The notes beneath the pieces were generated by a model. The model was given only the letters and a program-made list of their open reading frames with translations. It was not told the DNA's origin and did no database searches. A stretch of 58,483 nucleotides of DNA, counting the filler, from Squatina squatina (Eukaryota), in assembly GCA_031763465.1 (NCBI GenBank). It is 3 parts of 3 records of this genome, joined end to end, with 100 filler letters (N's around TTAATTAATTAA, not from the genome) between each part and the next. Parts side by side here need not be neighbours in the genome. Positions count along the whole stretch, not along the records: positions 1 to 31,321 come from JARFOE010000004.1; 2 more parts are not named here. One strand, 5' to 3'. This document shows positions 1-43,177 of this stretch, piece by piece; the first letter of the stretch is position 1, and each line of letters opens with the position of its first letter. Position numbers and translations under genes: made by a program.

Positions 1-3000
1 TTAAATTGTCCCAGAGATGTGGGCATCGCTGGCAAGACCAGCATTTATTGCCCAAGGTACTCACTGAAGCAAACTGTGAACTTTCTGGAAATAATTGATA
101 CCCTGTAAATCAAACGCTTAGCCCAACACATAGTATAAATTTTGAAGCATGGAATGCAAGCCTAAATTGCTCACCGTCAAGTTATAACATACTTAATGGA
201 CAATTTGCCAGAATAGTAATCTTCTTGATCATTTAAATTTCCATTATGATAGAGAGGATGATGCTTTCTTCAGGAGAACTTATCCCATAATTACGGAATC
301 TGATCTCGTTGGAACATTTTACCAAAGAAGTTGACATGAGCACTCAACTATGGGGGTGAGATTCATATTATTGATGATGTTACAGGAAGAGTTGGTACGA
401 GTACAGAACCTGCGACCATTTTTTGGTTAAATTACTTACAGAATGTGTTTCACCTCCATTGTCTACATTTCAAGGGATGATGATTTTCCAGGCTTATTTG
501 ACTTTCACGTAGTAAATGGTATACTTTCACTGACAGCACGATTACTAGATGTAAAAGTAGCATGCTTATATCTGTGTGTGTGTAACAAGATGAGTATTAT
601 GTTTATTTGGTTTAGAAGGCAATGGTGTGTTTAAAGCTCAAGACACTCGGAAAGAAACCCAAGGTGCTGCCGAGGTGAGAGAAGATGCAGATATGAGAGT
701 GGATCTACCTATTGATCAGGTTAGAATGTGTGCAATACCATAGTTTTTGTCAATCTTTGACATGCACAGAGATCTTTTTTCTAGTTTGTCCATTTTGTAG
801 ATGCATAATATGATTTTGCAAGATGCATAAAAGGCATACATTATTCCATATTTTTCACCAGATGATGTTGGTGACTATCAACAAGCTATTTCTAAGCAAT
901 TTAATTAATTTTGTAAATTTGCTTTCTCTAAAACTCTTTGCATACATTTGACTGTCTATTTAACCAAATTCCTTTTTCAGGTTAGTCTGTTAGAGGAATC
1001 TACATCCTTGTTCTCTGGTGATTTATTGGTTATTCCTTCTGAGATGCCTGACAGTCCGTTGGAGTCCTGTATCAGAATAACCTAGTGGTCGAATGGGATC
1101 AGAGTTTGTGTTCCCTAGTGCTCTAAGAAGGCTCACTCACTTACCTCTGCTTGGATTAGTCCTTAAAGTTGGACCAACAGGGCTAAAAATTAGGATGTGC
1201 TCTGTTTGGGGGCAGTAACATTCGCGAGACTTTGCGGCAGGCGCAGNNNNNNNNNNNNNNNNNNNNNNNNNNNNNNNNNNNNNNNNNNNNNNNNNNNNNN
1301 NNNNNNNNNNNNNNNNNNNNNNNNNNNNNNNNNNNNNNNNNNNNNNAAATACATCGGAAACATTGTTCAAGCCCTCCTTTTTCCATTTGATCCACATGTA
1401 TTTTACTGGAAAATATTTACTTATTTTAGACCAGGACAAAATGCCCTTCAGTTTGCTGCATTGCAAAATAATTTATCTGTCCTGTTCCTTTGATGAAGTA
1501 GTCTTGGATAACCATGATTGTAAATGGCTTTCTGTACTCTATCATCTAACTTGGCATTGACTGTGATGGATGTGAAAGATAGACCATGGCCTAATAATTA
1601 ATTCACATTGAAGTCATGTGCAAATTTAATTGAATTTTTATGTGCATCAAATTGATAGGGTAGCTATTAGAAGTTGTGTGTCTCTCAAGAGTTACACTGA
1701 ACCTTATGAAGCAATTTTTAAATTGTAAGTACAGCACTTATTTTCATAAGAAACACCATGTGAAAATGCATTTTTCAACATAACTATTTTGTAATGTCAT
1801 TTTTTGATCTAAAAGATTATTCTGCAATGCATGATTTCACAAACAAGATATTTCAAACAATGTACAAATGACCTAACAAATCTGCATGTACTGTGGGTTT
1901 AAAGAAAATGGGTAGGTAGCATTGACTACAGAGATTTTCTTCCCCTATTGCTTACAAACAGTGACCTGATTTTTTGGCTGAATGAATAAAAAGCCAATCC
2001 ACAAGGATAGGCCTCTGGTAGTTTTTAAAGAAATTTAGTTGGACAGCCTAGGCCGATAGACCTGGACATTACGGGGCTGATTATCCTGACCTGGGATCTC
2101 TTTGCTTAGGTGCTANNNNNNNNNNTTAAGCCCTAGTGCAGGCCCGTCCTCTGGCAGGAATGTCAGGAACAGCTGCAACCCTCTCAGGCACGCAGCTGCC
2201 TCTCAGGCCTGGGAGATTGGGACCAATGGAGGTTCGCAGCCAGGAGGTCCCAACTGTCCATGAAAGTTCTTGAGGGAGGTGTTAAGAAAAATATAATGCA
2301 GACTGTCAGCCTGTGCTCCTGGCAGTTCTAAGGAGGTCAGGGGCACATCAGAGTGTCAGCTTTTTCTGGACGCTCCTGTGCTGGGGCACCCTGGTGCTTG
2401 GATGCCCAGCAAGTATCACATCCAGCAATAGAGTGGGAAGGCTGGGACCACACCTCCTCGCCTCATCAGTTTTGTTCTGTCTGGACAGTGCTTCCTACAG
2501 GGGCAGGTCAGGTTCTGCTCCTATAGGAGGTCCTGAATGAGTGACTGTGAGCATCAGACAGTGTGAAATGCTTTACAGTTGAAATTGCCCCTTTTTGTGA
2601 TGCCCGTTAGCACCTGGAAGTGCTAACGGGGCGTGAAACACTTTCCTGCCCAGGGGTGGAAGGTGCACTACTGGCTCCCGCGAAATCACGCAGGAGTTAG
2701 TGGAGGCACTGCCACGGTAGCGCCGTGCCCCGCCAGTAGTGTCCTGGGCCGCCGTGCAACCAGCGATGATGTCATTGCCGTGCACTGTGACCCCTTAGCG
2801 CCATGGGCCGACACCTTTCCGCCCTGTGGTGGATGTTGCTCTGCGCCCCGCGAAGCTGCCGTGAGTGGNNNNNNNNNNNNNNNNNNNNNNNNNNNNNNNN
2901 NNNNNNNNNNNNNNNNNNNNNNNNNNNNNNNNNNNNNNNNNNNNNNNNNNNNNNNNNNNNNNNNNNNNNNNNNNNNNNNNNNNNNNNNNNNNNNNNNNNN

Positions 3001-3300
3001 NNNNNNNNNNNNNNNNNNNNNNNNNNNNNNNNNNNNNNNNNNNNNNNNNNNNNNNNNNNNNNNNNNNNNNNNNNNNNNNNNNNNNNNNNNNNNNNNNNNN
3101 NNNNNNNNNNNNNNNNNNNNNNNNNNNNNNNNNNNNNNNNNNNNNNNNNNNNNNNNNNGAGAACGGATGATANNNNNNNNNNNNNNNNNNNNNNNNNNNN
3201 NNNNNNNNNNNNNNNNNNNNNNNNNNNNNNNNNNNNNNNNNNNNNNNNNNNNNNNNNNNNNNNNNNNNNNNNNNNNNNNNNNNNNNNNNNNNNNNNNNNN

Positions 3301-3364
3301 GAGAATGGATGATGTGTGAGAGGGGATGAAGAGAGAGAGAATGGATGATGAGAGAGTGGATGAA

Positions 3365-3393
<29 letters not shown>
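3301..3393. repeat. Purine-rich simple repeat (GAGAATGGATGAT units, then (GT)n/(GA)n)
   Basis: Directly visible; lies next to assembly gaps. Confidence 0.85.
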
Positions 3394-3395
<2 letters not shown>

Positions 3396-3580
3396 TATCT
3401 GTTAGATTCTAAGCTTTTTTTTGTTTCCTGCACAGTTGTAACCAAGTAGACTCACTGATGGAGCACTTGAAGGTTATTGAACACTTACTCAGTTAAAATA
3501 CTGCAAGGACCTCCATTTGGAGACTATGACAATGGAAAAGCAATTTCTAGCCTAGCAAAAACCAATGTTTTATTTTACAG

Positions 3581-4046
3581 GTCCCTGCTGAAATTGTTTA
3601 TGAGGAAGAAATACCACCTTATGACAATGTTACATCTACAACCAACCATGAAGATCCGCATGATGGAGTGGACGGTTACGGAAATGGAAGAGAGCAGTGG
3701 AATGACCCAAATGGGTGGACAGGAGATGAGGATGGACTAGTTGAAAATGTACAAGAAGACAGTAAAACTAAAGAGGATATCCTGTCCAATAATGTTGATC
3801 GTGATACTCGAATACTAGGAAGTTCAAATGCACTACCTTCAGCAACAGATGGACCTCATAGCAAACAGGAGGACCCAAGGAAAGAAGGCTCTCGCCCAGC
3901 CCATGATGACTACAATGCAGGCATGACCTCAGAACAAAAGAGCTTACAATCTGCTTGGAAAGATCCGGTGTCACATGAATCTGAAACATGGCACGAGCCA
4001 GCAGAGAAACAAGAGCACGTTGATGAAGTCTCAGAGTTGGAAAAGG
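3581..4046 (+). CDS. Probable internal coding exon of an unidentified host gene (acidic, low-complexity region)
   Basis: Acceptor ttttattttacag| at 3580. The frame is open from 3581 (VPAEIVYEEEIPPYDNV...DEVSELEK) and includes ORF 3668..4171. Candidate donors are AAG|gttag at 4046 and AA|gtatgg at 4089. A small upstream exon 3436-3472 (CNQVDSLMEHLK) would splice in frame. Protein not recognised. Confidence 0.45.
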
Positions 4047-6320
4047 TTAGCAATGAAAAGGAACTTAATGAGCTGCAATTGCACTATAAGTATGGAATGT
4101 TTAATTGTTGTGGTGGAGTGTTCATTAAGAATGTACAGTTGGTGCTTTTTAAAAATTGTCTATACCGTTGATTCAAACAAGTTGTGCTAAGCCTCAAAAA
4201 GCAAAATCCAATAATGCAGCAATATTGTGTAACCCATCATAACCTTATGGGAGTAAAAGAATACAATTTGGCAGGTTTGCTACTTATTAGTCGCTTCATC
4301 TTGGGTGTAGACTGAGAGAGGAATAGTTTAGTAATGTAAAATTGAAGACCAAATGGCGATCTGGTTGCGGTACATTTCAAAGAGGGGCTCAAACCTTGAA
4401 TGAGACCCGGAATTGGAATGCTGAAAGAGGCAGGTTTTACTCTATTGTTCCTAGGTTATGGGATGCAGTATTTAGTAAATAGTTAGAAAATAATTACTGT
4501 AAACATTATAAATAGTACAGAACCAATTATTAACAATACAGTTGGAACTTTATTTATTCTGTACATATCAAAATGACTGACTCATTTTATAATGGCCACT
4601 TCTAATGTTACATTACAGCATTAGATTTAAACTCTCTGTATTTTTTATGTCACTATTGACCTTTTTGCAATGCACTCTGTGAATATGCCACTTATAGAGT
4701 ACGAGTCATGATTTGGATTAGTAAANNNNNNNNNNNNNNNNNNNNNNNNNNNNNNNNNNNNNNNNNNNNNNNNNNNNNNNNNNNNNNNNNNNNNNNNNNN
4801 NNNNNNNNNNNNNNNNNNNNNNNNNTGGGTTCAGAATGTTCCAGAGGTGACCCAATGAAGAGGGATAACACCTCTGACTAGTTATGGTTGGCAGAACATT
4901 CACATTCAATGGTTGGGCCAGTTAATAGTAGCTCTAGTTATGCTATAGGTTAAGGAAATTAGAAGAACTGGCTGAAAGACCGTGGTTTACATTCCAGGCA
5001 CCAAAGGGACAGGAGAAATTCAGAAAACTGTTTGGATTTCATTTCAGGAGGTCAGCAAAGTCCAAGGGTAGGTCTTTCAGGTGCACAGACTTGGTAAGAT
5101 TTAGTAATTTCTAAAAACAAGGTGTCAGTTTATTTAGATTTCAGTAGAGATTCAGCAAATGAAATGCAGACATACAAAAAGAACTCTTATTCTGCAAAAG
5201 ATGCTATTGATTTGAATCAGTTTATAGACCTCAATGATACACATTAATCTGTTTAAAAAATGTACTTGCAAAACCCCATGGAATTAGTTCCAAATAAAAA
5301 AGTTGTACTTGAGTATTCATACACAAAGACTGATTCAGCACACGAACTGGATTAACAAGCTTGAAATTAAACAATATAATTCACTTTAGGCAAGTGCGTC
5401 AGCTATTTAGTGCTGCATTTCTGCTGTGCTTTATTCTTCCCTAGATTTTATATGGCAATAAATGAACAAATAACACAAAGCTTACTCAGATAAGTTATCC
5501 AGATTCAGTAAAATGATTCTTCTGTTTTATAAACATCTGGCCACTGCTGCTTCTTTGGTAACAGTATCAGATTTTGGTCCACCATTAATCACATTCGTAG
5601 AAATTAGTGTTAGTGTGTTTTTGTTGAATTAAGAACTTCAATGCATTAGGCTCTCACTAGAAAAAGATGAATTCACTAATCACAAAATACATGTATTAAT
5701 TCACGTCATGCTTTTTCAAGCATGTTTATTAAAATGACTCTGTGCTCTTATGTCGTTTTCAGATGGTTATAAAGATAACAAATGAGGACAGTGTCCCCTG
5801 TTCCAGACCCTAGATGAAGCATATGGTGAGTTTGAATGTTCTCAGGAAGATCTTCCATGGCTTTAAATTAAAAATTCAGAACAACACGGGGTGCTTTAAT
5901 GACTTAACTTTAGGATGCAGCAGCTGAACAACAGTCAGCTCTCCATATTTGAAGCAGGGGTGCTGATTACTGGCGGGAACTAAGCCAGCAACTGTGGAGG
6001 GAAAGGGGAAATGAGCTGTTGTCTGTGAACCCAGCACTCACAATGAATGGAGTTTAATTACCCCTGCATCAATCCAATTAACCTGCTCTGCCTGTTGGTC
6101 TTCGACTTTGAAGGGAATAGTTTACCAAGTGCATTAAATCTGTGCTCTAAAACAACAAGAACAAAATGGGGAGGGAGTACTGTCCCAAATGAAGACAGGA
6201 TGAATAGGCACTTCACACAATGCCAATTGTATATATAAAAAACTAAACTAAGTATCTAGAAATGAACAGGCCCGATAAGTTTAGAATGTTTAACGGGAGA
6301 AAGTACTGAGGGTTTGCTTA

Positions 6321-7073
6321 TTACTGTTCACTTAGACAGGCAGCTACACAGCAGTATAAGGATTTACAAATAGACTTTATTGGACAGCATAGAGTCTCCC
6401 AGAGGTTTTTTTTTGGTGGGGGGGGGCAAAGGGGGTCCCTTTTAACTACTTGGTTACTACCTACCAATGTCAACTTCAACTCCCACCTATAAGGCTCATC
6501 AGGTCCAACTGCCAGCATTTCAGTACAAACAAATACATGATGTACATAGCCCTTCGTCAATATGAAAGTTGTGGATGGAATTAATGGTAGACAACGACCA
6601 AGACCACCACTGTAGCGAGGTTCTCGCCAAATTCTATTAACCAAACCGACCCACAGCCAAGTACAGTACATTGTAGTGATGTGCTGTATGTCTCAGGGTT
6701 TGGAAATGGTTTACAGTACGACACGCTCCCATACATCTATCGCTACATACAAAGGGTCACTCCTGCTTTCTCCCCTCCACCCCATTTAGTCAGGTGAAAT
6801 GAAATGATTGGGATAGCACGGGTGAACTGGAAAAAAAGGAAGCCTAATAATACAGTCCGACTGCCTACACAACGGTTCAAAATTTGGAATCTCAAATACT
6901 TCTGAATGGCAGTGGTCTGTAACAAAGACTGCGAATCTGGACAAGCATTACCTCTCCCTCCAAAACTGATCCCTGTAAGATTCCTTGTACTGTCCCATGT
7001 TTGGCTCTGGCACACATTTAACTGGCCTGGCCCCTCGCCCATTCAATGTCTTTATTGTGTTTTTGGGTTTCAT
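6321..7073 (-). pseudogene. Orphan decayed reading frame (about 250 codons), possibly a retroviral accessory gene
   Basis: ORF 6321..6671 continues upstream in the same frame to an ATG at 7073, interrupted by four stops (TAA x3, TGA x1). It ends in a Cys-rich tail (LCCPIKSICKSLYCCVAAC). No homolog recognised. Confidence 0.3.
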
Positions 7074-7759
7074 CTCTCGCCAGCCATTTATTGTACTTTA
7101 TATGCTTTGGTTAGAATTCATTTGAGGTTGCGAAAGAGTTTGGGGGTGGGGTGGGGGAATCTTGGACACATCTCCTCTTGCCTGAGCTGGCAACTTTTCG
7201 ATCTTTGTCCCTCCATATGTTGCCCACAGCCTGTTCACAGGCACAAGAATCATTCCTTTCAGCATTTAAAAAACGTTTCCTGTCCCCCCCGCCCCTCTTA
7301 CATCCACTGAAAATTAAACATGTAGAGGACTCTGTTGTTACTCTGATATTTTTTAAATCTCCGTGTATTCTTTTTAAAACAGGAAAACTGTACTTCNNNN
7401 NNNNNNNNNNNNNNNNNNNNNNNNNNNNNNNNNNNNNNNNNNNNNNNNNNNNNNNNNNNNNNNNNNNNNNNNNNNNNNNNNNNNNNNNNNNNNNNNTTGC
7501 AGTTGTCAATTGGGAAATCTGTGGAGGGTCACCTCTGGTTCTCTTCCTCTCCCTGGTATTCTGTGCTCTCTTCTCTTGCAAAGGGGTAAGAACAGACCAA
7601 TGAGTGACTGTGGCATGTGTTCATCCGATGGATGGTGTGCATTTGGTGAGGGTGACTATGAGCAAGAGGAATGACATTGCATAAGGATGAGGGTGAGTGG
7701 GAGTGGCGGATGGATATATGGGGATGTGAGGAAGTGCATAGAAAGAGGGGGATGGGTGC

Positions 7760-8240
7760 ACCTACAAGATAACTAGGTGTGAGGAGTGATGTGATGGAGT
7801 AGGCTTGAGAAGGCAGAGTGAGGGGGTGGGGTGATGCGCACAGCAGGGTATAGGTGAATGTGCCACTGCTGTCACCTTTACTGACCTAGTTGGACCACTA
7901 AACCACTTCCTACACTGAATCCCGGAGAGTGGCACTACGCTTCTGCCACTGACCACCTCTGACACCTCCAGCCACGCCTTCTTGGTTTCAGCTGCATGCT
8001 TCTTCCTCCCGTTGCTAGGGGTATCTTTCTCCTACTCCTCACAGCCCCCAACAGCACACCAAGGGAGGCATCAGTAAAGCGGAGCGCAGCCTTTGAGCAT
8101 CTGAACACCATTGCAATACCTCCTGTTCTCTTCCTGCCAACTCCAACTCCTCCAGTTTACATCTTTGGATTGTCCCTTTAACTACTGGAGTTGAGATCGC
8201 GTCATGCGAGTCCACATCACGCTTGCTGCCGCTGATTGGA
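7760..8240 (-). mobile_element. PIF/Harbinger Myb/SANT-like gene remnant
   Basis: Minus-strand pieces across frameshifts read APLYLMP/FTDASLGVLLGAV...ETKKAWLEVSEVVSGRSVVPLSGIQCRKWF, matching the W..V...V......R...QC.K.F pattern of Harbinger Myb/SANT proteins. Confidence 0.65.
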
Positions 8241-9009
8241 CAGGGAACCCAGAAGTAAAATGATAATGAGGTGGCTGTGTTAAAAGGCCACCGATAGACG
8301 CGCTGAACAGGTTTCCCACTCGATATCGGACTCCCCCCTCTGCTCCCAGCATGTCTCCCAATTAATATCAGAGTAATTATTGGACAGAATGTCTGAATCA
8401 GTGCCCAGTACATCGGGTTGTGATCATTTTGCTGGAAATAAAAATGTTAATCGCGCTCAAGTGCTAACCAAGTAAACCAGTTACATCACAAGAGTTTTCT
8501 CCAATTTCTCCATCCTGAAAGACAAATCAATCAAAAATCGTTATAAATCTATTTTTAATGTAGCGCACTTCTAGAGTGCTATAGAGCAAATATTCATGGA
8601 GGTCGATACAAAAACCTTTTTATTTACATTTGTGCAATAAAAAAATGTGTATTCATGGATCTCAATCAACGATCCTCCATATATCATTTCATTACGAGTT
8701 ACTACATTACATCAGAAAGATCACCTCTTAGGCTCCGACAGACATGGTTGGTGTTTTGTTGCAAAGCAGATGAACATCTCCTTGTCCCAAGGTGAGTATC
8801 AGTTTGAGTTTGTCTCCTGTCCCATTTTGTGTGTAATGATCTCTAGCAGGCGATATATAATAACAGAACTATAAGCTGTGTTTGGACTTAGATGTTTTGA
8901 CAAGGAGAAGAATAATTGCAAATGATCACAGTTGAATTGCATGATGTATGTTGGAGCTATTAAGATTATGAGCCAACAAACAACTTTTGTAAACTGAATT
9001 GTCTTAAAT

Positions 9010-9412
9010 CATAGAATAGAATCATAGAATCATATAGCAGAGAAGGAGGATATTTGGCCCATTGTGCCTGTGCTGGCTCTTTGAAAGAGCTATCAAATTA
9101 GTCTCACTGCTCTGCTGTTTCCTCGTTATCCTGCAAATTTTCCCCTTCTTTTATCCAACTCCCTTTTGAAAGTGACGATTGAATCTGCTTCCACCACCTT
9201 TCAGGCCATGCATTTCAGATCATAACAACTCGCTGCATAAATTTTTTTTCCTCATGTCGCCCCTGGTTCTATTGCCAATTACTTTAAATCTGTGTCGTTT
9301 AGTTACCAACCCTTCTATCAGTTTCTCCTCACTTACTTTAACAAAACACTTCATACGTTTGAACACCTCTATTATAAGCTCCCCTTAACCTATTCTGCTC
9401 TAAGGAGAACAA
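9010..9412 (-). mobile_element. CR1 LINE 3' fragment
   Basis: catagaat tail repeats and the CR1 ORF2 C-terminal motif (gaatctgcttccaccaccctttcagg...ttaaatctgtgtc), seen many times in this window. Confidence 0.8.
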
Positions 9413-9771
9413 TATATTTCGATTAGATCACAATTTTCTTGGGTGGAGAGGCAGGCCGAATCTTGCTGGATATAGATGATGATAGCCCTCTGGTATCTCA
9501 TCCAAACAGCTATTCTTCAAGTGTAAATCTGTCCGTCATTCTTCGGAGGCTATTTGTGGGACCAGCTCAGCTGAGGTGGAACCTTTCTTCATCTAGCATG
9601 TGCATACTTTCAGGAAGGGCTGGAATATAGTAAACAAGTGCAGAACCTCTGCTTGATTTCAATCTTCTCCAGCCTAAGATTGCTACAGATAATTGTAATG
9701 CTCCACTGGCACCCATTTTGAGATTGGCTAATTTAGCACTGACAGGATTGGTTAACCTGGCACTAACAGAT

Positions 9772-9955
9772 GTCAGCCTTGGCCCAGTGGTGAAACTGTC
9801 AGCTCTGAATCAGAAGATCGTGGTACACAACACATTCCAGAGTCTAGAACACTGAAGCTAGGTTGACACTTCAATGCAACACTGAGGGAGTGCTACGGTG
9901 CCAGCTTTCTGATGAGACTTCAAATTGCCCTGTCAGGTGGATGTAAAAGATACTG
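9772..9955 (+). mobile_element. tRNA-derived SINE fragment (V-SINE/HE1-like)
   Basis: Head tgtcagccttggcccagtggt...tctgaatcagaag plus core gcaacactgagggagtgct...caggtggatgtaaaagat, shared with the copies at 22155 and 38605. Confidence 0.65.
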
Positions 9956-10569
9956 GGGGCCCAATTGGTGTGTTTTCATGCTCGAGTAGTGCCGACTAGT
10001 GGCGCTATCTGGGCGTGAAATCAACGTAGAGTGAAAAAATCATAAAATGTCTANNNNNNNNNNNNNNNNNNNNNNNNNNNNNNNNNNNNNNNNNNNNNNN
10101 NNNNNNNNNNNNNNNNNNNNNNNNNNNNNNNNNNNNNNNNNNNNNNNNNNNNNATTTAAGCATTTGTTTGTTGATGAATCAATCGAATTACTCAGTTTAA
10201 AAAAAAATGTGTGTCTTCCATTTTATCTCAGTAACAGAAATGTCTATTGGCCAGAATAGGAGTCTAAACAAAATGGTCCCGATTTTGTGGTCAACATCGA
10301 AAGAATAGCGCTTACCGGTTAAGGTCTGCTGAAGCCAGTCATGCAGCACCTTTTCCTGCAAAAGAAAGGAAAGTGTGTCAGTGAGTGTGGTGTTGTGTGT
10401 TTGGATGATGTTGCTATCATGGTTGAATAGCTGACAGTGTGTTCAAGCTGTGAAATGGGGGTGTGAGGGTTGCAGCAGTGGTATGGGGAAGCTATGATTG
10501 TGAGGTATGAGTTGTGTTTGGTAGAGATTGTTGGTAGTTGAGTGATGGGGGTGTACAGTGTTGAGCAGT

Positions 10570-10809
10570 GTGTGAGGCTAGTGTTGCAGATGATGGGATA
10601 TGGCATTTGAAGATGAATTCACTGAGCTTGACCACTCGTGAGATCATTAAACTTCTTCCTGCACTGCATCCACATCCCCAGGCTACACTGCTGGCATTGA
10701 CCACATCGGCTGTCTGCTCCCACTGCACTCTTGCCTGTTGCTTGGAAGGCTTCCTGGCCCCCTGTGAAACGAGAATCTCTCTCCTGGAGTTGATTTCCTG
10801 GACCAAGGC
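10570..10809 (-). mobile_element. PIF/Harbinger Myb/SANT-like gene remnant
   Basis: LVQEINSRREILVSQGARKPSKQQARVQWEQTADVVNASSVA, then a frameshift to WMQCRKKFNDL, the Myb/SANT signature of Harbinger elements. Confidence 0.75.
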
Positions 10810-11707
10810 NNNNNNNNNNNNNNNNNNNNNNNNNNNNNNNNNNNNNNNNNNNNNNNNNNNNNNNNNNNNNNNNNNNNNNNNNNNNNNNNNNNNNNNNNNN
10901 NNNNNNNNNGAAGATTAAAAAAAACAAAATTCTCTGTTCAGATGAAGGATAACACAGAAACCGTTAACCTTTCTCTCTCTTTCAATGGACCTGCTGTGCA
11001 TTTCTAGCAATTTTCTGTTCTAAGTGTTATGCAATATTTTTTTATGACTCATGCAATGGTGGCAGTGCATCGAGGAGACACTCAGGTCAACGAGAGACTC
11101 CTGAAGCTACAATACCATCTGATAAATGGTGCAATGGAACTCTAGCCATTCCTGACATGTTACTACCAATGGCAGAGTGCAGTGGGCATCTTTAGTTAGA
11201 TTTCAATGAACATTAAATCATTATCCTTTATGTTTACCTATAGAATGAAACACATGCATTCATATCACACCTTTCGCAGCTTCAGGACACCCAAAAGCAC
11301 TATACTGCCAATGAAGTAATTTTGAAGTGTGGTCACTGTTGTAAATGTAAGAGGTACAGGCTAGCTTTAAGTAGTGCTAGGCACTAATGATACTGTGTCG
11401 CCTATTAATTCGTGCAGACCAAGCTGCAAGCAGAAATCATGGAAATGAGCAGGCAGCATAAAGTCAGCATCCCCCCTGCAGTGCAATCAACGGGCGTGGG
11501 TCATTCGCACATCGCAATCCCTGTGCCCATTTTCGGGTGTTATCCATTTTAACTCCTCCCCCCCACCCCCGTCTTAACTTTAGAAAGAAATTGGGGGTGA
11601 TTTTAACTTCGGCTGCCAATGGGAAGGAAAATCAGGTTGGGTGTATGACGGATGGCCGATCCACAACTGCCAGTTTTACTCCTACGCTGCAATTACAAAT
11701 TACCCCC

Positions 11708-13249
11708 ATAGTGTCCCGGCAGCCCAGTCTGAAAAACTATACTTTACACTAGAACGTTAATAAAGTCGAGACAGATGTCGGCTTTTGGCATACAAATTGC
11801 ATTTCTTATGATACATTCCCCCGTTGGAGATAAGGAAACATTAATGATAGGAACATCAGATTCAGCTCAGATCAATGCGATCAGGATAGAATCTAACTAA
11901 TTGTAGACATGGAGGTTAAGATTGACTGTCTGTATAGATTGTCCATCAATATAGTTATCACCAATGCCAGGTGCAAGCAGGGCTTTGCCTACTTGCATTA
12001 ATTATCTCTTCGAACAATATCATACAGAAGTACATTACAAGATGCACCTATTAATCCATCTTGAATTGATAAAAATCCCTTTTGTCTTTTGTACTTTAGC
12101 ATTTGGTCTGGCTCGATGAGTCGGACCATAGCTCGGTCTGACAGCTGTGGAGCCAAGGGACCTAACCGCGCCGCTGGCAGGGTGCCAACGAGTACCAACG
12201 GTCCGTCAGGAATGCAGGACCTTTCAAATGGTACGAACCAAATATATATAAGCATCGTGAAAACGGTTAATAGGATTGAAAAATAACGANNNNNNNNNNN
12301 NNNNNNNNNNNNNNNNNNNNNNNNNNNNNNNNNNNNNNNNNNNNNNNNNNNNNNNNNNNNNNNNNNNNNNNNNNNNNNNNNNNNNNNNNTTCACTGACTG
12401 AGAGAGTTGATGTGTACCAACCTCGAGATGGGTGAAAGTGGGCCTCATTGGTAGGGTCCAGGCCAGGGAGTGGTTTGCATCCCTGAGGCACAATTTTTTT
12501 TTTACCAGATTGGCTTGCTTACACAGAGAGCTGAGAAGGACATGGGCAAGGATGGGAGGTTGCTGGGATCCCCACCACAGGAGGCGAGTCCCGGAGTTTC
12601 GGGATATGTGTCTATAGTAGCCATGGTGCCCACCTGCCCCATGCGAATTGGGTTCCCTCCCCAGATCCCACAAATACTAGTGCTGGGAGGCACTAGTGGC
12701 TGCAAAACCAACAATATTTGGGGCTTTAATAGTTAAGCAACTATTGATACAATCCNNNNNNNNNNTGCCATTCAAATGAGAGGTCTGTTATACACAACAT
12801 ACAGTCAGCTGTAGGGTCAGACAGAAGTACTGCTCTTGTGAAAAATGTGTCTCCCCTCCTCTGTATTTTCATGCCTCAGGAGTCCCAGAGGTCGATGCCC
12901 TACATGACTAAGTCAGCAACTGCTTGGGAGTGGACTGGACATGCATCTTCTGCAGATTGATGGGCTATGGGTATAACAGTCCAACATGTTTTAGTGGGTT
13001 ATATTTCAGTCTTATGCCATTTGGATAAATAAATTCTGGTAAGCCATGCCTTCCCGACCCATTCTTTCCTTTCTTCTCACTCTTCATGCAGCAAATATTG
13101 ATGAGGAATTCTTATGTCTAATTGTTCAGCAAGATATATTTGTCCTCAATCAATTATCCACATTGGAACAGGACACTCCTGTGGTGCAATCTGCCAAGTG
13201 ATTTATATTGGCCTGACTACTGAGAATTATGGCCAGCAGACAGCACGAC
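11708..13249 (-). pseudogene. env: Decayed retroviral envelope remnant, foamy/spuma-like
   Basis: Hand translation across stops, frameshifts and gaps gives: hydrophobic SCCLLAIILS, a basic RVRRK site, GLPEFIYPNGIRLKYNP, then a Cys/Pro-rich SU-like stretch. A furin-like KRQK(G) at 12076-12090 is followed by FLSIQDGLIGASCNVLLYDIVRRDN/LMQVGKALL...LHVYN*LDSILIAL. This is in register with the recalled foamy TM N-terminus (LRSMGYALTGAV...DENLQQGIYLL). Confidence 0.5.
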
Positions 13250-13349
13250 NNNNNNNNNNNNNNNNNNNNNNNNNNNNNNNNNNNNNNNNNNNNNNNNNNN
13301 NNNNNNNNNNNNNNNNNNNNNNNNNNNNNNNNNNNNNNNNNNNNNNNNN

Positions 13350-13704
13350 GTGAAGACAGAACCAAAGTATGTATTTAATTGGTCTGCCATTTCTTTGTTC
13401 CCCATTATAAATTCCCCTGATTCTGATTGTAAAGGGACCTACGCTTGTCTTCACTAATCTTTTTCTCTTTACATATCTATAGAAGCTTTTAGTCAGTTTT
13501 AATGTTCCCCGCAAGCTTACTCTCATACTCTATTTTCCCCCTCTTAAATCAATCTCTTTGTCCTCCTTTGCTGAACTCTAAACTGCTCCCAATCCTGAGA
13601 TTTACTGCTTTTTTTGGCCAATTTATATGTCTCCTCCTTGGATCTAATGCTCTCCCTAACTTCCCTTGTAAGCCACGGTTGAGCCACCTTTCCTGTTTTT
13701 ATTT
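13350..13704 (-). mobile_element. CR1 LINE ORF2 fragment; its 5'-truncated end abuts the proviral integrase
   Basis: KSFYRYVKRKRLVKTSVGP...IMGNKEMADQLNTYFGSVF, the typical CR1 ORF2 linker between endonuclease and RT. Confidence 0.9.
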
Positions 13705-14180
13705 TTGAACCACTCTCTGAAGGGAGCGCTAGCTAAAGCTATACAGGAGACCGGACGCGGCTGGGCGGATTTGTTGCCCAGCATACCGATGGGCCGACGG
13801 GCCCCCCGAGCAGGGCGACCGGACTGATGCCGGGCAGGGAGCAATGAGATTACCAGAGGATGTAGTAACAGGAAGCATGGAGGTGGGGCTGGTGACAAGA
13901 GAGAGAGAGGGAGAGAGGTTCGTGAAGGAGCTCTGTATGCAGTTACGTGGGTTAAAGCAGGAGGTGAAGGATCAACAAGCAATTCAGGGCATGGGAAGGG
14001 ATTGGGCGGAGGAGAAAGCCCAGGTACCAGGAGTAGGGGGAGAAGGTGATGGTGAAGATAGTACCAGCCAAAGCCGGGTTCGCCCCCCTCCACGACAAGC
14101 GGTACATGCGCATGCGTAGAGATGGGGGGACGGTGGAAACACTGGTCACAGATAAAACCCCTCACTCTGGCAGTGGAATA
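13705..14180 (+). pseudogene. pol: Integrase core end and C-terminal domain (frameshifted, small deletions)
   Basis: LNHSLKGALAKAIQETGRGWADLLPSIPMG.RA...TGL.P...GRAMRLPED matches the post-catalytic IN motif N.TLK..L.K....W...LP..L...R...TG.SP...GR.M. Then VG.KVMVK..P...F.P and CVEMGGRWKHWSQIKP* (W.H.S..K motif). Confidence 0.85.
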
Positions 14181-14207
14181 ATAAGGTCCCCTGGTGACGA
14201 TCGGGAG

Positions 14208-14227
14208 ATCTCTTCTTCTACCCACAG
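14208..14227 (+). promoter_or_regulatory. env splice acceptor
   Basis: Polypyrimidine tract plus CAG (tctcttcttctacccacag|), about 30 nt upstream of the env ATG at 14259 and just after the IN stop. Confidence 0.6.
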
Positions 14228-14258
14228 ATCGAACAGGCAGGAGCGACGTTTAGAAAGA

Positions 14259-16066
14259 ATGCGGAAGCTCGTAAGCCCCACAATCCTATAGGGATGTCTG
14301 GCAGCGATGACCTTAGGAAAAGGCACGTCTGAGGAGCGCGGAGACATCTGGTGACTGCACTACACGGATTCGAGTGACATCAGCTGCGACCAAGAGTGGG
14401 GAGCGCTAAATGTGACGGTTGATAAGCGGGTGTTCTTACATTGTAAAAGCGGTTTGTTAACATTAGCGAGCGTGGACCCAATCACTGGGGGTGCAGATGG
14501 CGCATACACCGGAGACTATTCCAATGTAGGGATGGAGAATAAGTAGGAGAATATGGCTGAGCTATGTTTCAGTAAAACGGGGGGCTGGGAAACCACTGTA
14601 GATTGCGTAACGACAAATGAGGCAAGGGTAAACTGTGACACTGGATTCACTATGTTCATGTAGAAACTGGCGTAAGAGGGGACTTGTCAATGATGTGTTG
14701 ACAGGAATAAATACGGGAACGTCGTGGTAAATTGGATAGACATCAGAGAAGTAGATAGTAAATTGCAGACCCTGAGGGGAGCCCTCAAGGGGATAAACAA
14801 GCAAGAGCAAGTGATATTGCAGAAAGGGAGCAAGGGAAGCCAGGCTCTGGCTACTTTGATTGGCGACATAGTCACGGTGCCGGAAACACACGCTCACCAC
14901 ATCAACCAGATTATCCACCAAGGCCATGCCGCCTCAAAAGGGAGCAGCTCGAAATGACCTATGCATGGCATATGGGAGCTGGATGGCAGGGGAAACTCGG
15001 GAGAATTTTAAGCTGATAAGCGAAGGTAAGATACCGAATTGGGTCAATGACACCGTCCTACGGGGGTTGGCCGAAGGAAGCCAATTGTTGAATGACTGTC
15101 AGTTGCGTGGATTGTACATACTGCCAGACCACTGTACCAGTATTAAAGGGCAGACATTGATACACTTCCTGGTGACCATACCAGCTTTACCCCAGAATGT
15201 GGGAGCGCAGAAGGTATCTAGAATAGAAAACGTAGGTGTAGAGCAAGGAGGTTATATTGTAGGATATGCACATATGCCAGAGTCTGCAGTCCAGACAGAT
15301 ACAGGGCTGATCAGCACTAGCCTAAAGGGGTGCACCAGAACACCTGCAGCCCGGGTATGTCCCCACCCAATCTACCACACTGACCAATGTGCGGATTTAA
15401 TTCCACAAAGAAGGTGAACTGCACATGGAGGCCATACCTGTCACCATGGTACCCACCAGGATGGCGCACCAGGGGCGCTGATGATACTGCATGAGTACCG
15501 CGGCTGGATACCTGGTCCACAGCGGGCAGATGTGCCCAATACAGAGGAAGGACTACTGTTTCCACCGGTCACAACCAGGGAGGGTCGGAGAAATATCCTT
15601 CAAGGTAATACGGGAACGAAAGGATGAACATTTGAACGTCACCGACAAGATAAAGGGTGACCTACTTAACTATGAGGTGCAGTTCGGTTACGAGATACCG
15701 GACCTCCCTGAACACTTCAGGGAGTTAAGACAGGCAGCCAAGAAGGTGGTCCGACTATTCTATCAGCTAGAACAACGAAGCGCAAGGCTGGAGGAAACGA
15801 CCGAGAGTATCGATGAATCGAGTTGGCGGGATGACCTATGGAACTGGGGCGTAAACTTACAGGTCCACCCCTGGATCAGGATAATATTGCATGTGCTAGT
15901 CATGATGCAGCTTATTTTAGCACTAGGATCCATATATTACACTCGCATACAATGTGGACAGTTTAAGAAGTGGAGAAGGGCACAGGAACACACAAGTATA
16001 AACGGGTATGCGCGGGTGATCAGGAAGAACGCATCAAGGAAGCATGTGCAGATAGCATCGGTGTAA
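14259..16066 (+). pseudogene. env: Envelope glycoprotein with class I F-type layout (decayed: several stops and frameshifts)
   Basis: Signal peptide MRKLVSPTIL*GCLAAMTLG. About 140-aa N-terminal subunit, then furin-type RNWRKR| at 14662-14679 and fusion peptide GLVNDVLTGINTGTS/VVNWID. Heptad-like IREVDSKLQTLRGALKGIN, GKIPNWVNDTVL, a Cys-rich region, a second helix (LRQAAKKVVRLFYQLEQRSARLEETTESI), Trp-rich SWRDDLWNW, TM IILHVLVMMQLILALGSIYY and a basic tail. Confidence 0.85.
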
Positions 16067-16186: not shown

Positions 16187-16199
16187 AAAAGGGGGAAGC
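16187..16199 (+). promoter_or_regulatory. Polypurine tract (plus-strand primer)
   Basis: AAAAGGGGGAAGC immediately before the LTR-initial TG at 16200. Confidence 0.8.
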
Positions 16200-16796
16200 T
16201 GTAGTAGCCATGATGGGGCAAGCAAGTTAAGAAAGAGTTACTAAGTTATGCAAGCCTTGACAAAGCCTTAGCAACCACAGGTAATAAGATAGCAGGGGGA
16301 GGGAGGGGCTCCCTGCCTGACAGCAGCTGTGCTCAAAAGACAAGGGAGCGGAAGTGCAGGTATAAATATGCAGAAACTAGCTGTGGCCTAAAGACAGGTA
16401 ATCAGGCCAGGATGTCCTTGGGCATTCAGTAAGTGAGGTGCGAAATGGGTTCGTTACCGGCCTATAGACAGGTAATCAGGCCAGGATGTCCTTGCACATT
16501 CAGTGATTAACGTGCAAGACAAGAGCCCGATAGTAGCAGAGCAGGATGTGAGGAGCCACGTACCTCTTGTACAAAAAAAATGAGGTAATGAATCAAATAA
16601 GGAAGAAGCATCGTGTCACAAACCCTACAGGAGCATCCCATGTATAACAGCTTGTGTATAAGTGTAGAGGCACGTGCTCTGTAAGTTTAGAACTTCTCGG
16701 GAGACTATTCCAAGGGTTCTCCCTGCTCGAGCTTGAAATAAATGCATTGAAGCCGAAGATCGAGTCATATCTTAATTTGGAAAGATGTTCCCTACA
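16200..16796 (+). repeat. 3' LTR (597 bp)
   Basis: Terminal inverted repeat TGTAG...CTACA; 74-bp-period direct repeat in U3 (16385 and 16459); TATA-like TATAAG near 16657; AATAAA at 16737-16742. Confidence 0.8.
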
Positions 16797-18469
16797 AAAG
16801 TCGGGACTGGTTCTGCTGGGGCCCAATAATGCAAAGACAATCAATGTAACATGGCCTCTGCTGTGTTTTCCTGCTGTTGTCACTGTTCAACCCCAGGAGA
16901 CATGAGCCCAGTCATCAAGCATTTTACGGTGGGTGATGGGGGCCTAGAATTCTTTGGGAACCCAGAGCCTGGGCCAGCACTCAAGGAAATTTGCATTGCA
17001 CAGGCCAAAGAAAGGCTTTTTGTGCAGAGAGAAAGAGAGACAGCACGACTGGAGGCAGTCCACAACCTGATATGAATACATTCATGGCTGAATTTTCCAC
17101 CTAATTTTTTCATAACATTCTCCCAGTAGATTGTGTGCCTTGTCTTAGAAAAAGTCAGAGCTAATAACCATAACTACCCCATTCCTGCCATTAAAAACAC
17201 ATTTATTTTGCCAAAGCATCTTTCTCTTTATGCTGGGTAATAAAGTTGAATAGATTTAATGGATTAACAATTGTGAATTATCATTTTTCATGACCAGAAT
17301 GTTATATTAAATACTTAATTATTCATTGCTAATGCTTGTCGTGGTGAAATATAATTTCCTGTAATTCAGAATACATCAGATGTGGCTTTTCTTCTTTGAG
17401 GTTAATGGACAAGCCCTTAAAACCATTAATGTTTCTAAATATGTCACCTCGTATGTCACAATTTCCTTTGTGAACTAAAGCAATGAAAGAAGCTCAACCT
17501 TTGCAGGCATCTGCAGAGGTCAATGTGGCGTATTGACATTTAACTTGTCTGTAAGGCAAGGCTTCCAAAGGTGACATGAAAGGTTTTGAACGGACACCTC
17601 AAATAGCACATTCAAATACATGTGTAGTTAGATTGAGTCTGTATTTATGCATTAACAATACTGCTTATATTAGCTATATATTCCGATTTAAGAATAATAA
17701 ATGTGTCCAATTTTAATCAACATACTTAATCCAGCATGCCTGGCAGAACCTGGATGCACAGGAAGTTAAAATCGGGGCACCGACTTACCTTTCAGATTCC
17801 GCTACCTTCCCACAGGATCTAATTTTAACCTGCTGTTTTGTGCAGGCAATCAGGGCATCTGCCAGAGGCAGCGGAGTCCTGATTCAAGTATGGAAGCCGG
17901 CTTCCTATGACGACAAATGGATCCGGTGCTAGGGGAGAACAGGAAAGTAAGTTATTTTTTTTGTCTCCTTGTGGGCTAGAAGGAGCAAGAGCGCTCAATC
18001 CATTGACATCCGTTGTCGAGGCTGAAAGGAAGAGAGCCAAGAAGTGAAAAGCTGAAATGAAAGGAACCCCAGTGTAGAAGTATGAGTCTGCAACCAAAGG
18101 TAAAGCAATCTGGGGCCACAGGGCCACAACTCTGGCACAACATCTGATCCTCTGTTTGCTGGCTGTTTAAGTGGAGTTGGCTCCTCACAAGGTGTTTATG
18201 AGGAAGATAGGCCTGTTCGCCATTTCACCTCACCCTCTGCATGCCAGCAAGGAAGTGGAGACGGGTTTCAGGATGCGGCTGACCATTACTGTCNNNNNNN
18301 NNNNNNNNNNNNNNNNNNNNNNNNNNNNNNNNNNNNNNNNNNNNNNNNNNNNNNNNNNNNNNNNNNNNNNNNNNNNNNNNNNNNNNNNNNNNNATTTTAT
18401 AGTTTCATTAGAAACAATGCCTACTTCCTCCTCTGTAACATTAATAACTTTTGACTTTGCCTAAATGCA

Positions 18470-38227: not shown

Positions 38228-38572
38228 CGGAGAAAGGGATGTGAGCCAGGTTGCTCTGGAACTTGTAGAGTGCGTGCTCGGTAGTGGAGGGCTGGCAGAC
38301 CTGGGCCAGCCCATGGAAGTCGAACTTGTAGGCGTAGCGCTTGCCGTGGACTTTGGTCATGATGTTCTTGTCGTAGTAGTAGCGCAGCGCTCGGCTCAAC
38401 TTGTCGTAGTTCATGTTGGGCTTGCTCTTCCTTTCGCCCCACCGCCTGGCCACCTCATCCGGGTCGGTGAGCTTGAACTCTCCGTTCGTTCCTTCCCAAG
38501 CGATGCAGTTGACGTTACAGCTGTCGGAGAGCAGCTCTAAGAGGAACTGCCACAGCTGGATCTGTCCGCTGC
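38228..38572 (-). CDS. FEV: FEV (Pet-1) ETS transcription factor, last coding exon (3' end lost in gap)
   Basis: Acceptor cctcgtag| then [115 protein letters not shown]. The post-ETS tail [18 protein letters not shown] is FEV-type, not ERG/FLI1. Confidence 0.93.
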
Positions 38573-38604
38573 CTACGAGGATAAATTAACTCAGTTAAAA
38601 AGGA

Positions 38605-41637: not shown

Positions 41638-42541
41638 TGTCACTGGCGCAGGGGAGTGCGCAATGGTGGCATGAAGTGGACACCTGGGGAAATGACCTGA
41701 AAATGTGTTGTGAATGAATTCAATTAATAGCACACGACAAGGCTTTCGAGGTAATGCAACTGGGTGCGACAGCGACAGGCTATGAGGGGCTTTTATTCAA
41801 CTCTTTTTTTTTTTAAGTCCCGCGTACAGGTTGGTGCGGAGAACGTTCAGCTGAGTTTATCTCCTGTTTTCCAGTTCAACGTTAAATTGATGCTGAAGGT
41901 CATCGTCGTCCAGTAAACTGCCTGGGTCGAGATTTTTATCCATTTGCGAGGTCATAAGTTTAATATGCTGCCACTCCCCCATCATGTTTTCCTCTTTCTC
42001 TTCTCCCCACCCCCCATTTCCAACCCCTCCCTCCCCTGAATGTATTTGCGGGTGCTGGAGTAAGATTTTGAAGGTGCCANNNNNNNNNNNNNNNNNNNNN
42101 NNNNNNNNNNNNNNNNNNNNNNNNNNNNNNNNNNNNNNNNNNNNNNNNNNNNNNNNNNNNNNNNNNNNNNNNNNNNNNNCCGGCGTGAAAAATGCCAGTT
42201 CCCACCTGTAAGCGCCCCAAAGGGGCGCGAATCCCTTTCAGCCCCCAAGTCTTTCACCAAATATTCACTTCACAGAGACCTGTATATCATAGAGCAGCGA
42301 AGGAGGCTATTTGGCCCATCGGCTCTTTGGGAAAAAAACTCGCCTTCTCTTCCCCCGTAGCCCTGCAATTTTTCCTAATCAAGTATTTATCCAATTCCCT
42401 TTTTGAAAGTTACTATTGAATCCGCTTCCACTGCCCTTTTGGGCAGTACATTCCAGATCTCAACGCCGCTTGCTTTAACACTGGTCCCAGTGGGACTAAT
42501 TTTTCTTTCCAAACTGAAATGACTGACTTTACTTAAAACAG

Positions 42542-42678
42542 GGTTCAACGCCGCCCATGTCGGTGTTTAAAGGCTCAAAGAGACCTTACCTGAAGGAATG
42601 CATTCTCATCGTAAATCACGACACCGGGGAGTATCGACTGGAGAAACTCAGCAGCAACATCACGGTGAAGAAAACCAG
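42542..42678 (+). CDS. EAF2: ELL-associated factor 2, internal exon
   Basis: ag|[46 protein letters not shown]|gt, 137 bp. GSK.PYLKEC and SSNITV favour EAF2 over EAF1, and IQCB1 is adjacent. Confidence 0.88.
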
Positions 42679-43177
42679 GTGGGTATTATGTGGCGTGTGT
42701 GTTGATTCGAGTGCGCCCTCCCACTCTGAGGCATGGTACTTCTGTACAATGGGAAAGGACTCTCTTGCAAAAAAAAAAAAACCCCAATGAATTGGACCGT
42801 TAAAAGGCATCGATTGTCAAATGTGTTTGGGCAGTCTTAACCCAGTTCCTAATCAGGCCTTTGGGAGGGTGGAGAGGAGATGTACTAGAACAAGACCAAG
42901 GATGAGGGACTTGAGTTATGCAGACAGGCTAGAGAATCGGAGGGGTTGTTCTCCTTGGAGCAGAGAAGGTTCAGGGGAGATTTAATAGAAGTGTTTAAAA
43001 TCATGCAGAGTTTTCATAGAATAAAGAAAGAAAGAAAAACTGTGCCCACTAGNNNNNNNNNNNNNNNNNNNNNNNNNNNNNNNNNNNNNNNNNNNNNNNN
43101 NNNNNNNNNNNNNNNNNNNNNNNNNNNNNNNNNNNNNNNNNNNNNNNNNNNNACTGTAGAAGTGATTTACCTTTCAG

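Follow-up and report, generated by a model that had tools for sequence, protein, structure and literature searches.

A dead provirus 3′ end in the shark Squatina squatina that carries a likely F-type envelope gene

Does the envelope-like sequence at positions 14259 to 16066 of a stretch of the Squatina squatina genome belong with the F proteins of paramyxoviruses and baculoviruses, and on what kind of element does it lie? The stretch analyzed, here called the window, comprises 58,483 nucleotides from assembly GCA_031763465.1, in three parts joined by filler, and the locus falls within the part taken from JARFOE010000004.1. The locus is the 3′ end of a dead, 5′-truncated LTR provirus, in which an integrase remnant, env, a polypurine tract, and a 3′ LTR follow one another. 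The explanation that we regard as reasonably probable for the whole is that the env of this dead provirus end likely encoded a class I fusogen of F type, from the family to which lokiretrovirus (Loki) Env belongs, and that its carrier was probably no standard lokiretrovirus.

Three-frame translation of the plus strand gives an env-like product of about 602 codons, pieced together from six frame segments, from an ATG at 14259 to a TAA at 16064–16066. The env frame is interrupted by five premature stops (14289, 14352, 14544, 15479, and 15482) and by about five slips (near 14640–14660, 14720–14727, 14915–14950, 15380–15390, and 15420), with the last two slips bracketing a short third-frame patch that contains two cysteines. 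The minimum number of stops and slips that must be crossed to traverse the env region is eight, against 17.2 ± 2.4 in 300 dinucleotide simulations, none of which was as low as eight, and the reverse strand of the same region requires 13. Because of this deficit of breaks relative to simulation the region is taken to be decayed coding sequence, which bears out the claim of a sequence-only reading that an env becomes readable here once stops and frameshifts are bridged.

The product begins with a signal-like start and an N-terminal subunit (14259–14679, plus strand, as for all env features) of 140 codons with eight cysteines. Its best signal-peptide window, at 14268, is hydrophobic (KD 1.2) but has one of the stops inside it, and so the F-type arrangement of an N-terminal signal peptide and a single C-terminal transmembrane segment (TM) is found here with a stop in the signal window. 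The length of about 140 amino acids proposed for an F2-like subunit holds, though "F2-like" describes position only, and comparison of the eight-cysteine subunit with lokiretrovirus F2 gave no match. The predicted cleavage motif RNWRKR is present at 14662–14679 and ends codon 140 from the ATG, but it does not match the strict furin pattern R-X-K/R-R, having Trp at P4. The putative fusion peptide that follows (14680–14725) had been described as Gly-rich; its first 14 residues contain three Gly, together with Asp and Asn, but are only weakly hydrophobic (KD 0.48), and a frame slip follows them. Cleavage site and fusion peptide share a patch of about 75 nt whose frame differs from that of both neighbors.

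Downstream of the fusion peptide lie heptad repeat 1 (HR1) and a following helix (14724–14950; 63% hydrophobic a/d positions), an F1-like core (14950–15700), and heptad repeat 2 (HR2, 15701–15823; 75% hydrophobic a/d positions), the last of which forms a long helix in a low-confidence structural model. The core carries landmarks of lokiretrovirus type, GKIP at 15025, NVG at 15229, C..CP at 15331, and CG..C at 15390, as well as the two slips near 15380–15420 and the stops at 15479 and 15482. The stretch of roughly 300 Cys-rich residues claimed between the two helices measures about 310 codons, though its richness amounts to 10 cysteines. The gene closes at 15824–16066 with a Trp-rich juxtamembrane segment, a single TM (15881–15940, the one strong TM window in env, mean KD 2.2 at 15881), a basic tail of 41 amino acids, and the stop, and the distance from the cleavage site to the TM is 400 codons. 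Thus the two heptad helices and the Trp-rich segment before a single TM were read correctly, and the layout is that of F-type proteins, with a fusion peptide leading into HR1, HR2 preceding the TM, and a core of about 250 amino acids between the two helices. Gamma-type Envs are defined by an immunosuppressive domain (ISD) and a CX6CC motif (bioRxiv 2021.11.23.469661). Neither CX6CC nor an LQNR-type ISD motif occurs in any plus-strand frame, as had been stated from the sequence, and env is therefore not gamma-type.

Organization like that of paramyxovirus or baculovirus F is accordingly seen in the layout, but no significant profile or structural match was obtained to go with it. With the separate env segments and two longer read-throughs carrying X at the breaks as Pfam queries, the sole match to a viral fusogen was Baculo_F (PF12259; E = 0.034, 13.2 bits with a cutoff of 24.1), which covers only the HR2-TM part and weakens to E = 0.1 when the longer read-through is the query; a Rop-like match (E 0.23) was likewise below threshold, and Fusion_gly (PF00523) was matched by none of these queries. 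PDB sequence searches with the env segments gave no match, and neither Pfam nor PDB indicated an Ig-like domain in the N-terminal segment. Searches for protein homologues of two open env segments, in longer and near length classes, returned no significant relative among 370, 403, and 6 candidates, a result that is weak evidence since the method requires shared 5-mers, and four scans of viral and metagenome contig collections confirmed no relative. Single-sequence AlphaFold2 models of env reached pLDDT values of 39.3 and 39.4, and Foldseek comparison of these models with BFVD and PDB gave no match at E ≤ 0.001.

Supporting motifs come from the Envs of lokiretroviruses, for which the reference was the supplement of PMC7947760 as represented by 13 of its 23 proteins, some of them partial. 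A chain of landmarks was drawn from six of these Loki Envs, consisting of the basic site, G[KRQ]IP, NVG, C-x8-10-C, and CG-x8-11-C with spacing windows between them. A scan of both strands of the window finds the four-landmark core of this chain a single time, at 15025/15229/15331/15390. None of 3000 triplet shuffles contains the core, and 3 of 3000 contain a two-landmark sub-chain; these shuffle figures are optimistic because the landmarks were picked after the window protein had been seen, and the chain is offered as support for homology to the Loki Env fusion subunit rather than as a clean significance test. The landmark spacings are 115/68/34/20 codons here and about 121/72/36/24 in Loki-Sri, and the 400 codons from cut to TM compare with about 405, the Loki-Sri values being counted by hand. 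Five of six further Loki Envs from the available part of the supplement fit the chain by eye, the exception being Loki-Cne, whose last motif is shorter. Homology of the fusion subunits is thus suggested by motifs chosen post hoc and not by an alignment score. The two Envs also have in common a signal peptide, a short N-terminal subunit, a basic site, a putative fusion peptide, a coiled coil, an ectodomain of about 400 amino acids with GxIP, NVG, C..C, and CG..C in the same order, and a single TM. In the portion of PMC7947760 consulted, its authors report that Loki Env matches Pfam Fusion_gly at E = 2.2e-7, so the relationship of env to F proteins is a transitive one. Given the ordered Loki Env landmarks at matching spacing in the fusion subunit, the product of env was likely a fusogen of class Ib, the F type.

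The order of genes around env also resembles that of lokiretroviruses, in which env comes straight after integrase (IN) and is followed by the polypurine tract and LTR. The C-terminal integrase remnant (13705–14258, plus strand) is spread over three frames, with a core end LNHSLK..WADLLP followed by MRLP, FVKEL, and GEKVMVK, and its likeness to lokiretrovirus IN ends was judged by eye. The remnant gave no Pfam match, and a GPY/F motif was not found in its tail, from which it has possibly been deleted. The last segment of the tail (14037–14288, plus strand) is open and shares the frame of the env ATG, and no pol stop separates the two; the stop may have been removed by a slip, or pol may formerly have read into env. 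A pyrimidine tract followed by CAG at 14210–14227 (plus strand), 31 nt 5′ of the env ATG, is a candidate env splice acceptor. Beyond env, the polypurine tract (16187–16199, plus strand) abuts a 3′ LTR of 597 bp (16200–16796, plus strand) with TGTAG...CTACA termini, TATAA at 16657, and AATAAA at 16737. The LTR boundaries were set by these termini and the polypurine tract because the window holds a single LTR copy, blastn having found no second one within its 58 kb. At 16385–16515, in U3, there is a 57-nt direct repeat (copies at 16385 and 16459, 88% identical), which is likely an enhancer duplication.

At its 5′ break the provirus adjoins a repeat fragment (13350–13704) that is unrelated to it and that may be LINE-like, and a 100-N assembly gap (13250–13349) lies directly upstream of this fragment. 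Pfam families of reverse transcriptase (RT) or integrase were matched neither in the six frames of positions 1–14252 nor among the 107 other open frames of at least 75 amino acids in the window (12 frames of the element being excluded). The window as a whole contains 51 runs of N, and with an assembly so fragmented the absence of proviral parts is possibly an assembly effect. Base composition changes across the element, with G+C rising from about 0.41 to 0.5 and a CpG observed/expected ratio of 0.65 in the element compared with 0.35–0.43 in the flanks, a ratio that fits a partly decayed insert.

Several features of the flanks were also recorded. An identical 11-mer is found at 13239–13249, at the contig end before the 100-N gap, and at 17039–17049, just beyond the element; it could be due to chance, to a larger insert with a duplication on either side, or to a haplotype or assembly join. 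Only about 100 bp past the LTR, and reading in the same direction, a pyrimidine tract with CAG precedes an open frame at 16897–17075 (plus strand) that runs 58 codons to a stop and has ATTAAA and AATAAA within about 170 nt past it. By these features the frame looks like a host last exon, though it matched nothing in Pfam or PDB, and the poly(A) signal of the LTR could cut short a transcript that used it. Elsewhere in the window are an FLI1/ERG-type ETS-domain exon at 38229–38585 (minus strand; Pfam E 1e-35, PDB FLI1 E 8e-66) and an EAF-family exon at 42527–42787 (plus strand; Pfam PF09816, E 2e-9). An Rfam search gave no match.

A rival assignment is a true but divergent lokiretrovirus, which would extend the group to cartilaginous fishes and in which the missing motifs would be the product of decay and divergence. 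The agreement of the Env landmark chain and its spacing speaks for this assignment, as does an IN core end that by eye is like that of Loki IN, and an F-like Env is a stated hallmark of the group (PMC7947760, in the part consulted). Yet in several respects the element departs from the lokiretroviruses of that partial supplement. An N-terminal [PT]GP-x-[ST]G motif present in all 12 Loki Envs with a visible N terminus is absent here, as are the YYD and PSW-x-GP of the integrase tail that all three Loki INs compared possess (both are our own observations, the former not being a published criterion), though decay or deletion in this copy could explain these absences. The N-terminal subunit is longer (140 versus about 116 amino acids from the Met), the fusion peptide is polar where that of Loki Env is rich in Ala, Leu, and Gly, and extra cysteines follow HR1 and occur also in the C-terminal domain. 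A Cys-x2-YGSW motif and a Trp-rich pre-TM segment are present here, whereas neither YGSW nor WNWG occurs in the part of the Loki supplement examined. In the screen of PMC7947760, as far as its text was available, lokiretroviruses were detected in none of six chondrichthyan genomes. Because the N-terminal subunit, the fusion peptide, the pre-TM region, and the integrase tail all differ, and because RT, whose grouping with the Loki clade defines membership, is absent, the element is not filed as a lokiretrovirus and is probably not a standard member of that group; we consider a divergent true lokiretrovirus unlikely.

An improbable assignment is that the element is not a retrovirus at all but an env-bearing Ty3/Gypsy element, errantivirus-like, whose Env resembles baculovirus F. 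The start of the fusion peptide is presumably closer to that of baculovirus and errantivirus F than to that of paramyxovirus F, which we count in favor of a Ty3/Gypsy origin along with the weak Baculo_F match and the wide distribution of F-type env in invertebrate Gypsy elements. However, the landmark chain is derived from Loki Envs, the integrase tail is without a GPY/F motif, and an eLife survey, in the portion seen, records no intact elements in vertebrates with homology to those of invertebrates; the supplements of that survey likewise contained nothing relevant that matched any of five short motifs (four taken from env, plus one variant).

A suggestion in the sequence-only reading that an intact paralog might be a co-opted syncytin-like gene or an active virus finds no support at this locus. 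It is very improbable that either this locus or one of its paralogs is a domesticated syncytin-like host gene, or a remnant of a virus active today. Within 1.8 kb the copy is broken about 10 times, once by a stop as early as codon 11, and it is unable to encode a whole Env; 14259–16066 lacks the intact open reading frame expected of a co-opted env gene, env is still joined to integrase and LTR remnants, and the CpG ratio is that of a partly decayed insert. That the F likeness is coincidental, with a basic site, coiled coils, and a TM generic enough to occur in an Env of another class, would account for the want of a significant profile or fold match but is scarcely credible given an ectodomain of 400 residues in which four landmarks of a non-generic kind follow one another with the spacing of Loki Env.

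If env was an F-type fusogen of the Loki Env family, its mode of action can be sketched by analogy. Following established F-protein biology, the ancestral Env would have been made from spliced RNA and would have entered the ER by its signal peptide, after which cleavage at the basic site by a furin-like protease would have yielded a Cys-containing N-terminal subunit of about 120 amino acids and a membrane-anchored subunit of about 460. On the model of paramyxovirus and foamy virus F-type proteins, as described in the part of PMC11468914 consulted, the cleaved subunits would form a metastable trimer in which triggering would lengthen HR1 and so drive the fusion peptide into the target membrane, and HR2 would then fold back onto HR1 to give a six-helix bundle and membrane merger. 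After germ-line integration, the 5′ part of the provirus would have been lost, or separated from the rest by the repeat insertion and the assembly gap, and the copy would then have decayed neutrally.

Known class Ib systems share parts of this architecture. According to the part of PMC11468914 available, paramyxovirus and pneumovirus F proteins likewise have cleavage near the N terminus, a fusion peptide, HR1, a long globular core, and HR2 before the TM, but unlike them env here lies in an LTR element rather than a negative-strand genome and shows no significant sequence or fold match to them. Foamy virus Env, in the same partially seen source, is also a retroviral Env with an F-like core and without the gamma-type ISD and CX6CC, although it carries a receptor-binding module between its subunits, whereas env here has only about 600 codons and a 140-amino acid N-terminal part. 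The errantivirus ENV and baculovirus F proteins described in the accessible part of PMC13524379 share with env a furin-like site, a putative fusion peptide, an F-type ectodomain, and, for errantiviruses, residence in an LTR element, and the HR2-TM part of env gave the weak, sub-cutoff match to baculovirus F (PF12259); the F-type Env that this source describes as spread across Gypsy elements is, however, reported from invertebrates. In chimaera, SnRV-like ERVs of the CmiERV lineage are known (PMC4977317, seen in part).

The sequence-only reading had presented the locus as a fossil class I fusogen linking retroelements with negative-strand RNA viruses. The layout and the Loki Env landmarks support the fossil fusogen, but the link to negative-strand virus F proteins is already known, having been published for lokiretroviruses (PMC7947760, restated in PMC9040795), for foamy virus Env (PMC11468914), and for errantiviruses (PMC13524379), with F-type Envs reported also from a tunicate element (PMC4977317) and in a structure-wide survey (PMC12583693), all as judged from the parts of these sources consulted. 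The literature searched, which leaves most subscription journals outside it, holds no description of an F-type Env of this kind in sharks, and the portions seen of PMC10699275, PMC11521997, PMC13709493, PMC12440569, and bioRxiv 2024.03.25.586437 contain nothing on such a shark Env. What is new here may be only the host group and the divergence of the N-terminal subunit, perhaps in combination with another pol lineage.

More tentatively, and with less confidence than we attach to the nature of the locus itself, cartilaginous fishes may have harbored a separate retrovirus lineage outside the lokiretroviruses and foamy viruses, with a compact F-type Env and its own Cys-rich, possibly receptor-binding N-terminal head. 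This copy alone is insufficient for an argument about an ancient envelope, since the provirus is dead, RT is missing from it, and no relatives of it could be retrieved. Four scenarios for the origin of retroviral Env are left open by Wang and Han (PMC7947760, in the part consulted), and an F-type Env on a cartilaginous-fish element that is neither Loki nor foamy would favor either great age of the F-type envelope or repeated exchange of env genes, and would close the gap in hosts left by the chondrichthyan genomes of that screen. If such a lineage existed, the F-type Env would be present in a third retroviral branch and could be considered as the envelope that retroviruses had ancestrally.
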